Of a DNA stretch of 64,000 bases, positions 3,063 through 28,822 are shown piece by piece. Under the pieces are notes generated by a model that was not told the DNA's origin, ran no database searches, and saw only the letters and a program-made list of their open reading frames with translations. The position numbers and the translations under genes are program-made. This DNA is from Eledone cirrhosa (lineage: Eukaryota). Location of the stretch: assembly GCA_964016885.1 (NCBI GenBank), contig OZ024743.1, positions 124,806,001-124,870,000 on the forward strand. Direction: 5' to 3'. The stretch's first letter is position 1. Each line of letters opens with the position of its first letter.

Positions 3063-3093
3063 CTGAGGAAGGGCTTATGCCCGAAACGTCGTC
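3063..3093 (+). ncRNA. Minimal Penelope-type hammerhead ribozyme motif (stem I not evident)
   Basis: CTGAGGA-A-GGGC TTAT GCCC-GAAA-CGTCG-TC; core boxes and stem II present, stem III minimal. Confidence 0.7.
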
Positions 3094-3180
3094 CCCCACC
3101 AACACCCCACTCTCCAGAGCGTGAAATTAATAAACATTCGTTGTACTGCCTCTCTGTTTTGTCCCTGTTCAAATTTTTCC

Positions 3181-3916
3181 ATATATATATATATATATAT
3201 ATATATATATATACATATACATATATACATATATATATATACATATACATATATACATATATATATAAATATATATATATATATATACATATATATATAT
3301 ACATATATATATATATATATACATATATATATATATATATATATATACATATATATATATACATATATATATACACATATATATACATAAATATATATAT
3401 ACACACACATATATATATATATACATATATATATATACATATATATATATACATATATATATATATACATATATATATACACATATATATACATAAATAT
3501 ATATATACACACATATATATATATATATATATATATATATATATATACATATATATATATAATATATATATACACACATTTATATATATTACACACATAT
3601 ATATATATATACATATATACACATATATATATATATATATATATATATATATATATATATATATATACATATATATATATATACATACATATATATATAT
3701 ATACATATATATATACATATATACATACATATACATATATACATATATACATACATATACATATATACATACATATATATATACATATATATATATATAT
3801 ATATATATATACATATATATATATATATATATATATATACATATATATATATATATATACATATATATATACATACATATATATATATATACATATATAT
3901 ATACATACATATATAT
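3181..3916. repeat. (TA)n/(TACA) microsatellite
   Basis: Directly visible. Confidence 0.98.
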
Positions 3917-4518
3917 GGTGGCTGCCAACTCGTTTTCGAGTACGGCCACTACTTTATATCCATGTAGAACCCCTACCAATGCGCTGAACGAATGTGACTT
4001 TTTAGTCCAGCCAGCGACTTGAAAACTCTGGTACAAACACTACACTTGTGACAATTATTGACACATAGTGCTGGGCCCATGGTACCATGTGACGACAAGT
4101 GCAGAGAGATCCCCAGATATAAAGCAATGCCTGTGCCGTGAAGCTTTTATAGTGAGCAAAGGCACTGCACAAAGCCAGTCCCACTCTCTTAACCAAGATG
4201 ATATTTACCAAAAAGAAGAACAAGTCAACATCATTGGATACCATCAGGGTTGCAGGTGTTATATCAGAGTTTTCCTTCTCCTAGAATTCTGCCTTGACAA
4301 AGGCTAAGGGGTCATCTCTCCCGGTGATTTTGGATGGCTATTGACTCTTAAGAGCCCCTTTGCCTTTTGACAGGTTTTGTTTTTAGTCCTGCAGGATGTC
4401 CAAAGTCACCCTCCTCACCAAGAAACCTTGGTGGGGTTGCCAGTTTAGTCGCCAACGACCCGACCATGAGACAGGTTGTACTGGGATACATGTTACCAGT
4501 AGCACCAACTGGTGACCT
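3917..4518 (-). mobile_element. ~600-bp non-autonomous RTE derivative, copy 1
   Basis: Near-identical to 5116-5714 and 28941-29545 with the same ends. Minus strand has an RTE 5'UTR-like motif CTAGGAGAAGGAAAACTCTGA, a terminal C2H2 peptide [22 protein letters not shown] and a 3' hairpin ACTCG-AAAA-CGAGT before a TA tail. Confidence 0.8.
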
Positions 4519-4520
4519 GA

Positions 4521-26200: not shown

Positions 26201-26887
26201 TATTTATGCTTGGGCTGTTGTCTTCTTGGAAAGCAGTCTGCTGGTTGCATGTGTTCAGCCTTGTAAGGGAGATACCCCATGATTTGCCATGGAGTGAAGT
26301 TAAGATACAATTCACAATATTAGTTATAGTGATATATATATTAAAGACACAATCACTTTCTAAAAGCCTTGTTTCTGAATCCACGAATGGAGCCAGAATG
26401 TATGGGTTTATAGAACAGTTTCTCCCACTCTCTTCTTGCTTCAATCTATTGCCATTATATCCATGGGAACTAGCTCTCTGATATCATATCTAACAGATTC
26501 ATTGCAAATCTTTCATATTTTAACTGTCACCTATCAGCAGCTATGATCACTGTTTTAGCAATGCCTGCACAGCTTTATCTATATCAACCAATGCTTTTAC
26601 AACCGAGCCATTATAAAATTTACTATATATGCCTAACCAATTGTCTTAAATTTAATAGTGGCATAAATTGGATTGCTAAAGAGGAAAAGATTAATATTTC
26701 AGGCAGTAGTCTTCATCAGAAGAATGATTTCTGATGGTTTGGAAGAGCTTTGCCACAGGTTACCTTGGATCCTTCTCTTTTCCCAATTGCAGCAGTGATT
26801 CTGAACATGTGGCATATGTAAACTCAATATAATCTCTTATTCTAATACTGAGATATATTATACCTGCTTTTACTATTTCTATCTTTA

Positions 26888-27080
26888 CAATAATTGTTTT
26901 TATGTTTGGCATAAGGCCAGCAATTACCCCAGTGCATTACTGGTGCTTTACTTTATTGACCCCGTAAGGATGAAAGGCAAAGTTAACTTCGGCAGGATTT
27001 TAACTCAGAACGTAAAGGGCCATAACTCTATGCTGCAAAGGCATGGTGTCTGATGCTCTATCGATACTGCCAATCCACTG
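26888..27080 (-). mobile_element. tRNA-derived SINE, Meta-like central domain
   Basis: Reverse complement of the 33458 family. Confidence 0.85.
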
Positions 27081-28499
27081 TCCTTTACAATAATAGCCTC
27101 TACATTCAGGCTAATTTTCTACCTCTTTCCAACCACATAAGGACTCTTTCTTCCTACACCAGTATATTACAATAGTCATAACCATTTCCTTTTCTTCTGG
27201 AATTTCCTATTTATATACACCTTCCCTCCCGTCCAATTACTAGTCTTTATCAATTAAAATATCAAACTATTAACTATTGTAACTTCACCCATGTTCCACT
27301 CTTCTCCTCTAGTCAACAGCCTCATTAGGTTTAGTAGGACCTAATGTTACATAGGGAAACTAATGGCTTACATTCAATCTGTTTCTAATTTATTCATCTG
27401 ATCTCACTATCAAGCCTGTACATGTAGGATGTATACATGTGAAATAACTTATCATAGATAATTCTTTAGATACACATTCAGACAATACTGATAACATAGT
27501 TTTCAAATAACGTCAGTTGTTTTTATTTCACACAGTACTTACTTTATATTCTCTCTATACTATAGCTTACTTTATATTATATCCCTAATAAACTTGTGGG
27601 AAGATCAGTCTCTGAGATCTATGTTCATTATCAGTCAACCTTATGACTGACTTGTCATTTTAACTGCGTTATGTTGACCTATATTCAAAGGCATACGTTT
27701 TGACACACACACACAGAGTTGTATCCATGCCTCTGTGGTTAAGAAGTTTGTTTCACAACTATGTGGTTTTAGGTTCTAGTCCACTGCATGATACTTGAAG
27801 CAAGTGTCTTCTACTATAGTCTGAGGTGTCTAGAATTCTACCTTAAAAGTTCCATCTAACCCATGCCAGTATAGAAAAAACAGATGTTGATCATTATGAT
27901 ATATTCAACAATACGTTAGGACCATAGCTAGGTAACTATAAACAGAAAGAAATGTAATATGTTGGATAAACTAACATTTAAATATATTATCAACTGTAAT
28001 AGAACTAAATGTGAAAGCCTAGTGGTTAGGGTGTTAGACTAATGATCATACTGTTGTGGGTTTGATTCTTGGACAGGGTGATATGTTGTGTTCTTGAGCA
28101 AAACACTTCATTTCACGTTGCTCCAGTAGATTCAGCTGAAAATTAGTACCAGTAGTAACTGAAGGTTGTCACCACAGACTGGCTGGCTTCCTGTCCAGTG
28201 GGGAGTCTTGTACTTTCAGTTGCTTAATGCTGATGAAACTAGGATAAGCACCAGCCTGATGGGCTTGGGTATAGAACTAAATACAAGGCTAGAGAGCACC
28301 ATCCATATATGGTAACTATAAACAATTATTAATCAAAGTATTATGTGGAAGTGCAGCTGTAAAAAAATACAGATTGGAAATTATTGATATAGTTACTTAA
28401 ATGTGAAAGTAAGAAACTAAGTTATTGTTTTATAGCATAGATGAATTCTTTTAAAACATAAATAACTATTATGGAAATAACCATGTGAATGTAGAGACA

Positions 28500-28822
28500 T
28501 ATATGGAGTATATCAATATATAAAGAACAAAAATTAACAAATATTTTAAATTAAAGCATTTAATTGATTCATGACTGTTTCTTTAGACTAACAAGAATAT
28601 TCCATTCCTGATAGAATAAACTCTTCAGAATCGATAAATACAAATAATATGTAGCTTGAATGCTCCAGACCTCCAGTGAAAGAACGAAAGACGTAAACAA
28701 TAGCATACAAATTTACCAATTGGATTAAAATCCGAACTGTTTTTTACCTAACTTACTGTGGACTATAAAATCATATTTTCCTTTATACGGTTGTATTATC
28801 AACTCATTTAAACTTGTTTATA
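28500..28822 (-). mobile_element. Penelope-like 3' fragment with degenerate hammerhead
   Basis: Minus strand starts YINKFK (like the GIY-YIG terminal FINKFKP.LN) at a TA tract; later GATT-CTGAAGA-long hairpin-GAAA-CAGTCATG-AATC (28632-28566). Confidence 0.6.

Follow-up and report, generated by a model that had tools for sequence, protein, structure and literature searches.

Hammerhead ribozymes in Penelope-like elements (PLEs), TA-targeting PLEs of the Hydra clade and animal retrozymes are all already known. In its accessible part, Craig et al. 2021 (PMC8557442) includes Hydra-1_Obim of an octopus among the Hydra-clade PLEs that carry hammerheads and prefer (TA)n, reports this preference in its supplement for 26 of 27 listed Hydra families from several phyla, and calls the hammerhead's use to endonuclease-bearing PLEs unclear. 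Animal retrozymes are described in the accessible parts of PMC7229834 and PMC7761336, and the portion available of a preprint by Li et al. 2026 (10.64898/2026.07.22.740005) proposes that they arise from PLE terminal repeats. An octopus repeat annotation (PMC13282606) gives 31 recently active PLE families and, in its accessible text, mentions neither hammerheads nor retrozymes; a literature search covering few subscription papers found no report of octopus retrozymes. Here, we analysed a 64,000-nt stretch of the Eledone cirrhosa genome (the window; contig OZ024743.1, positions 124,806,001 to 124,870,000), in which an earlier note had seen a set of non-coding hammerhead and fold-back mini-elements living in TA repeats. 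Seven inserts, named by position, were traced to seven families (3063 = A, 9953 = C, 10325 = D, 15285 = E, 15669 = F, 28628 = G, 11202 = H). It is highly probable, in our view, that they represent seven or more repeat families with 3' ends in (TA)n, comprising five PLE 3' ends (three shown, two likely) and two retrozymes likely copied by PLE enzymes, inserted by the proposed mechanism outlined below.

The contig that carries the window is 379 Mb long, in an assembly of 3.0 Gb. Positions 1-21100 consist of mobile-element fragments split by TA tracts, with a TA share of 29% compared with 4.5-5.4% in arbitrary genome regions, so that the position of a motif inside the window is hardly informative and genome-wide copies are. 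Genome searches returned at least 40 matches for each of the seven inserts, making every one multi-copy, with best-match identities of 98-100% (A, C, F, H), ~95% (E) and ~80% (G). At the 3' junctions, all A (25/25, with the same base before TA) and H (20/20) loci end before TA. The other families either end at TA or read through: 24 and 4 of 30 loci, respectively, in F (2 unanchored, TA by eye), 23 and 6 of 30 in D (1 other), 17 and 13 of 30 in C (4 being second views of palindromic copies) and 14 and 11 of 25 in E. Tails end in TA in 12/14 cases for C and 11/11 for E, against the genomic TA background of 4.5-5.4%. In read-through copies the element's own next bases are CATT/TATAT (F), GCT/CATAT (D), TAATAA/ATAT (C) and TTCT/TATA (E), so that the 3' break (slash) falls on a TA-like motif within the element. 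Inverted arms occur in 10/26 (C), 13/25 (E), 13/20 (H) and 7/30 (D) loci, and in 0/25 loci of A. The endonuclease-bearing PLE families show 5' truncation of PLE type, partial tandems (pseudo-long terminal repeats, pLTR) and, except for A, tailed inverted copies at the 5' side. The idea that TA repeats are recurrent end points of a number of separate Penelope-related families bearing type I hammerheads is upheld by the genome-wide copies. For the 28628 copy, the statement that all inserts sit in or against TA needs correcting: its 3' end adjoins only 6 nt of TA, and a TG/TA tract lies on its 5' side.

The 9953 insert is the end of a young Hydra-clade PLE, judged by protein motifs rather than by a tree. 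Its forward arm (9841..10018, plus strand) is the last ~175 nt of a 3.26-kb unit with an open reading frame (ORF) of ~714 aa, top matches being 99-100% identical. The arm is preceded by an inverted 5' arm (9597..9840, minus strand) that consists of a reverse copy of the 3' end plus an 85-nt tail and carries a second hammerhead with A at core position 4 (A4), its core at 9750. The fold-back once placed at 9681-10022 is hence a real inverted structure (9597-10018), of a kind described for PLEs, yet it is a 5'-inverted truncated PLE copy and not a separate mini-element. In full-length copies (L166-L170), repeats 3.26 kb apart flank the ORF, and in one of them (L167) a reverse transcriptase (RT) and, at the C-terminus, a GIY-YIG endonuclease (EN) follow each other in a single ORF, stop-free over 690 aa. 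The protein has RWR, DKT, a CxCX5C linker (CNCRNRVDC), one C inside GIY-YIG, CDLC and CKH, and lacks CCHH; these traits match the Hydra-clade set in section 11 of PMC8557442, hence the assignment. As far as that source is accessible, Hydra-clade PLEs share with family C the C-terminal GIY-YIG, an RWK-like motif with DKT, the CxCX5C linker, the missing CCHH, insertion in (TA)n, and a hammerhead near the 3' end with stem II closed by U.U. They differ in being under 3 kb rather than 3.26 kb and in having U, not A, at core position 4; the N-terminus of family C also differs by eye from that of Hydra-1_Obim, and its best database matches are 38-56% identical. Pfam found no domain in the Hydra-type ORF and none in the GIY-YIG piece of the window. 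More Hydra-type PLE families (L225, L232, L228, L195, L249), with 35-50% protein identity to C, were seen, three of them in the first 20 arbitrary regions.

The hammerhead of this insert (9948..9998, plus strand) has the variant core CAGAAGA in a three-way junction (stem I of 5 bp plus a distal 9 bp, stem II of 3 bp closed by U.U, stem III of 4 bp plus A-U) and a predicted cut after CUU at 9993. Besides the inverted copy at 9750(-), the window holds another copy of the motif at 58183(-). Exact counts, for which reversed patterns served as controls and gave 0, yielded at least 13,924 copies with A at position 4 versus 174 with C, G or T; since these 174 are a mix of all three bases, the master copy of family C carried A, and a U4 master lineage was rejected. 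Position 4 is where the core departs from the canonical one, position and architecture being otherwise Hydra-like: among 26 published Hydra rows (Craig supplement), stem II is closed by U.U in 14, H17 is U in 10 and position 4 is U in 26. In an older family C subfamily with different flanks, too, the three stems are intact, as is the core apart from position 4. No U4A hammerhead was found in print by a search that left out most subscription papers and Lunse et al. 2017, and the A4 core appears, as far as the literature was searched, to be an unreported variant, predicted to slow cleavage.

The 3063 and 15285 inserts are 5'-truncated PLE ends, putatively of Neptune type as read, again, from protein motifs. 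Family A (1325..3180, plus strand) encodes a GIY-YIG C-terminus at 1325-1593, followed by a 1.6-kb C/A-rich 3' untranslated region and a fixed 3' end before (TA)n. Longer copies have DKG, RT and a C-x4-CxxC linker upstream; RT and EN stand in frameshifted copies (RVT_1 E 1e-5, under the Pfam cut-off), and a protein search identified RT plus GIY-YIG proteins from aquatic animals as relatives. The 35-nt motif of A has 775 exact copies genome-wide. Family E (15247..15390, plus strand; 10,951 exact motif copies) reaches GIY-YIG with the C-x4-CxxC linker ~1 kb upstream in 3/4 long loci. Both families have two cysteines inside GIY-YIG in addition to C-x4-CxxC. Of the Neptune traits (DKG, CX2-5CxxC linker, CCHH, C-terminal EN), A has all and E those of the EN, the linker being found in Nematis as well. 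The A hammerhead (3061..3092, plus strand; predicted cut after 3090) is minimal, with its core intact, a stem I of just 2 bp, a bulged A before stem II and a CG palindrome in stem III; a type III reading, tried by eye, did not fit. That of E (15282..15314, plus strand; predicted cut after GUA at 15311) has a CCGG palindrome in stem III, stems of 3/3-4/2 bp and the recognised U3-A8 core TTGAAAA, so "degenerate", as it had been called, is the wrong word. In the accessible part of Cervera & de la Pena 2014 (PMC4209133), Neptune-type PLEs have just such minimal type I motifs, with stem I reduced to 2 bp, a base bulging out ahead of stem II, a palindrome in stem III and the U3-A8 core; A and E differ as new sequences, and the U3-A8 core of E has ~11,000 exact copies compared with ~1,300 Schistosoma matches there. 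Inversions of family E (L117-L139) have a common breakpoint at a short palindrome ~70 nt upstream of the cut site, where the window copy begins too.

Families H and G are probably PLE ends as well. The H insert (11202..11343, plus strand) comprises the final ~95 nt of some longer element and, at 11202-11250, a 5' inversion. The hammerhead-less fold-back reported at 11202-11311 does contain this inversion; in longer copies there is a core of the TTGACAA type, whose stem I is poor, and two loci show inverted GIY-YIG-like sequence, read by eye. The G insert (28522..28815, minus strand) is a decayed copy of an old family of ~80% identity, with an inverted tail at its 5' side. Its hammerhead core (28628-28622, minus strand) has lost C11.1 and H17, the cleavage triplet being gone, and most family copies retain both C11.1 and the triplet. 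In two of five long loci (L203, L205), interrupted Hydra-like RT remnants lie upstream on the same strand.

The 10325 and 15669 families are, on present sequence grounds, non-LTR (long terminal repeat) retrozymes. The D insert (10170..10473, plus strand) is a 5'-truncated copy of a 464-nt ORF-less tandem unit, seen as head-to-tail dimers in L054 and L055. What had been taken for a fold-back end at 10170-10197 is an internal hairpin of this unit, where the window copy is truncated. Joined to its 5' end is a 48-nt internal piece of an RTE long interspersed nuclear element (LINE; 10121..10168, plus strand; same words at 7048), a template switch or a nested remnant. The F insert (15636..15996, plus strand) is a 5'-truncated copy of a 630-nt ORF-less tandem unit. 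In both families the units stand head to tail at 464- and 630-nt spacing with one core each, the longest stop-free stretch is 58 and 91 aa, respectively, and an extra direct copy is present in 12/30 loci of F and 2/30 of D. In 100 loci, none of the units (D, D2, F, F2) was adjoined by a PLE ORF on its own strand. Linking the families to ORFs, a check from the earlier note, succeeded for A and C (RT plus GIY-YIG) and E (GIY-YIG), and gave no link for D and F. The non-coding set that the earlier note described does not hold for 3063, 9953 and 15285, and its retrozyme idea suits 10325 and 15669, the other inserts being PLE 3' ends, shown or likely. Exact counts are 1,346 for F with its sister subfamilies and 69 for D (33-nt pattern). 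The sisters D2 (483 nt) and F2, ~75% identical, retain unit length, junction and core. Between F and F2, a G-C pair in stem I changes to A-U and a U-A pair in stem II to C-G, and D and D2 differ by one double change, the stems being altered yet paired. The predicted circles of D and F fold better than shuffles (z -2.6 to -4.7). Family F variants also occur as contigs in four sequencing runs of unrecorded kind, uninformative on expression. Like the animal non-LTR retrozymes of Cervera & de la Pena 2020 (PMC7229834) and Li et al. 2026, as far as these texts are accessible, D and F are ORF-less, tandem and low in GC, with one type I hammerhead per unit and a self-paired predicted circle, and their unit lengths fall inside the 51-972 bp range of the latter. 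Unlike those, they are dispersed, 5'-truncated and placed at a fixed site in (TA)n, D with 5' inversions, which is a PLE signature; copying by Penelope enzymes is likely. Satellite arrays of hammerhead units were seen in L239 (G000:C28:110000001-110010000; ~420-nt period, 15 intact motifs in 10 kb) and L302 (467-nt period, two opposed arrays).

All six hammerhead cores announced for the window were found in place by sequence inspection and a descriptor scan. The type I core CUGANGA..GAAA..UH with three stems is full in D and F, minimal or variant in A, C and E, and lost in the window copy of G. D (10319..10400, plus strand; stems I/II/III of 6/3+/3 bp, predicted cut after GUC at 10394) and F (15663..15743, plus strand; 6/6/7 bp, of which stem III is stable; cut predicted after CUA at 15737) are complete canonical motifs, the only two to pass a strict scan of the window's 30 CTGANGA sites. 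Canonical descriptor matches with a score of >=12 occurred once over 12 window shuffles. Folding z values are -3.6 for 10325, -3.3 for 15669 and -4.2 for an intact G copy, and a three-way junction is supported for 15669 and the G copy, and partly for 10325; the minimal motifs A and E are not stably folded alone, as described for PLE motifs. AATAAA, ascribed to the tails of several inserts, follows the motif in three of the five plus-strand inserts. Window positions 1104-1200 hold the 3' end of a further hammerhead family, cut off below the ribozyme; in this family's longer copies (L227, L255) the core is canonical and stem II is closed by U.U.

How might such elements insert? The GIY-YIG endonuclease would nick (TA)n, and the freed TA end would base-pair to the RNA at an internal TA-like motif of 4-5 nt that lies 25-260 nt downstream of the hammerhead. 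From there, reverse transcription would proceed towards the 5' end and mostly stop early, which may lead either to direct rejoining to TA or to a fold-back giving the inverted arm, an arm whose start is often another TA-like motif, located 60-100 nt beyond the first (the "tail"). Multimeric read-through transcripts would be cut into unit lengths by the hammerheads, circles would be possible for D and F, and PLE enzymes could mobilise these two in trans. The coincidence of all 3' ends with internal TA-like motifs suggests microhomology priming, for which the same literature search found no precedent in print for PLEs. In EN-minus PLEs (Athena, Coprina), which the accessible part of PMC8557442 links to telomere priming, a stretch matching the DNA target likewise adjoins the hammerhead; here, in contrast, only 4-5 nt match, internal (TA)n serves as the target and the elements have an endonuclease. 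The most abundant young family has the A4 core, with its predicted slow cleavage, so copying probably does not depend on strong cutting. As a general rule, ribozyme cleavage setting most 5' ends is unsupported, with no pile-up at cut sites; three D-type copies (L054, L266, L320) start exactly at the cut site, which is suggestive only as a trace of cleavage.

A number of observations weigh against this account. The junction loci are the best matches to each query (20-30 read per family) rather than random copies, and the Hydra and Neptune assignments come from protein motifs instead of a phylogenetic tree. Longer copies of E showed EN but no RT, and no contiguous RT-EN ORF was seen in G or H. 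Covariation in G does not rise above shuffles (54/500 reach its score), as expected for decaying copies, though it gives no support either; the stem test thus succeeded for F/F2 (two double changes) and D/D2 (one) only. Few 5' ends lie near predicted cut sites: within 4 nt in 1/97 rows for C, 0/21 for F, 0/8 for A and 1/13 for D, and exactly in 1/28 for D2 (rows not de-duplicated). Cleavage and mobilisation are predictions. Rfam hammerhead models, a check that the earlier note had proposed, recognised no motif: there were 0 matches at the gathering threshold in the whole window, no hammerhead among the matches listed by E-value (the best 150 of 320, mostly TA-repeat microRNA matches), and none among 13 weak matches on 14 excised loci. 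Singly, three of the six motifs (3063, 15285, 28628) fall within the chance range, below or near the score cut, with z of -0.9, -0.6 and -1.5; we accept them because of the family evidence. The last two points would suit chance matches in AT-rich repeats, an explanation that is hardly credible for the set: 40 arbitrary 10-kb regions (400 kb) gave 80 motifs in 21 sequence clusters compared with 0-2 in five shuffles, 52/63 motifs lay within 300 nt upstream of (TA)5 against a 27% background, and the motifs sit in PLE 3' ends, as published. TA flanks are also common to hammerhead-less elements (4/5 RTE tails and 19/20 copies of a 605-nt element). The RTE control consists of five ends in the sampled regions, since a genome search with the RTE 3' end, in which common words were skipped, gave no match. 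Together with the TA-like seed at each 3' end and some 5' junctions without TA, the TA flanks of these other elements leave room for a scenario in which TA is no endonuclease target, elements enter any AT-rich break and TA grows later by slippage from the TA-like end, or TA-rich junk merely tolerates insertions. We regard that scenario as improbable, as many copies have TA at either side, also where the 5' junction was made at a variable truncation point, and the published Hydra families show the same preference across phyla in the accessible supplement.

For D and F, the ends, tails and inversions that they have in common with PLE fragments, the 20-30 best loci read per family and the derivation of retrozymes from PLE terminal repeats in the accessible preprint text would also fit terminal repeats of unsampled autonomous PLEs, locally amplified in tandem. 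This is unlikely, considering the head-to-tail joins without an ORF and the ~75%-identical sister subfamilies that agree in unit length and junction, in keeping with a long history of propagation on their own. More evenly balanced is the question of a dead relic in family C: the master copy of the A4 motif would have lost cleavage by a point change and transposed on since the hammerhead is dispensable. U4 in all 26 published rows, family C 5' ends without excess at the cut site, Naiad PLEs that thrive without canonical hammerheads (PMC8557442, accessible part) and the lower in vitro activity of a U4C change (PMC3088659) speak for it; against it, the three stems and remaining core positions are intact even in the older subfamily with other flanks, and the U4C change is reported still to support viroid infectivity. 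We give the relic somewhat less than even weight.

Extrapolating from the arbitrary regions, we obtained 63 motifs in 38 regions, or 1.66 per 10 kb (bootstrap 1.05-2.3), leaving out one satellite array (15 matches) and one region beside a known copy (2 matches). This corresponds to a genome total of 3-7 x 10^5 hammerhead-type motifs, which may be a few-fold high, because A4 motifs number 21 per Mb in the sample versus 4.6 per Mb for exact 39-mers. The exact floor from five families (A, C, D, E, F) is 27,065. Hammerhead-type motifs therefore number at least 27,000, and probably 10^5 or more, genome-wide; the largest figure found in the literature searched is 120,000 retrozyme copies in axolotl, in a source accessible in part. 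A bolder picture, which we put forward tentatively and doubt as a whole, would have several hundred thousand hammerheads, above any reported genome found; a guild of TA-targeting PLEs that, in the manner of telomerase, picks its RNA template through base-pairing between nicked (TA)n and a TA-like motif inside the RNA; unrelated retrozyme circles hijacking PLEs without a shared 3' tail; and a dominant young PLE using a new, active A4 core.

Other repeats share this setting. The 605-nt ORF-less element lies at 3917-4521, 5115-5718 and 28941-29545 (minus-strand reading), with fixed ends and top copies 98-100% identical. It has no hammerhead, its structured 5' end matches no Rfam family, and hepatitis delta virus (HDV)-like or twister folds, tried by eye, did not fit. 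RTE-type LINE copies with (ATG)n tails that often run into TA occupy 5926-9150, 13525-14955, 12408-12910 and 22303-23150; the one at 5926-8796 is stop-free for 956 aa, and L201 has a 1,060-aa copy. Short TA inserts at 9277-9388, 28871-28927, 16078-16140 and 17025-17088, with 23-28 matches among fetched loci, are probably more truncated element ends. Positions 53790-58600 are Helitron-like, with a helicase-like coding sequence, read by eye on the minus strand, and a 74-nt tandem repeat, and contain an older family C copy (58120-58290). A 48-nt tandem repeat (10.8 copies) lies at 46455-46973, and a short exon-like stretch at 17397-17491 follows an AG repeat and ends in a GTAAG splice donor.

The individual families are new as far as searched (Repbase and Dfam lay outside the search), so "possibly undescribed" holds for them but not for their kind, since Hydra-clade PLEs with hammerheads and (TA)n preference are published. 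New are the A4 core of a Hydra-type family, the PLE insertion signature on retrozymes, the 3' ends at internal TA-like motifs and the motif numbers. Rfam misses this hammerhead class here entirely, and repeat annotation would class such fragments as miniature inverted-repeat transposable element (MITE)-like or unknown. Family C is a natural experiment on the hammerhead's role: it is young, high in copy number and changed in its core, with canonical-core sister families for comparison. Hints at how PLE reverse transcription is primed come from the fixing of 3' ends at TA-like motifs inside the elements. In the accessible parts of the retrozyme papers (PMC7229834, 10.64898/2026.07.22.740005), the movement of retrozymes by PLEs is inferred from co-occurrence and sequence kinship, not shown, whereas here junctions bear on it, and the PLE-type junctions that D and F carry in hundreds of copies make the question testable.

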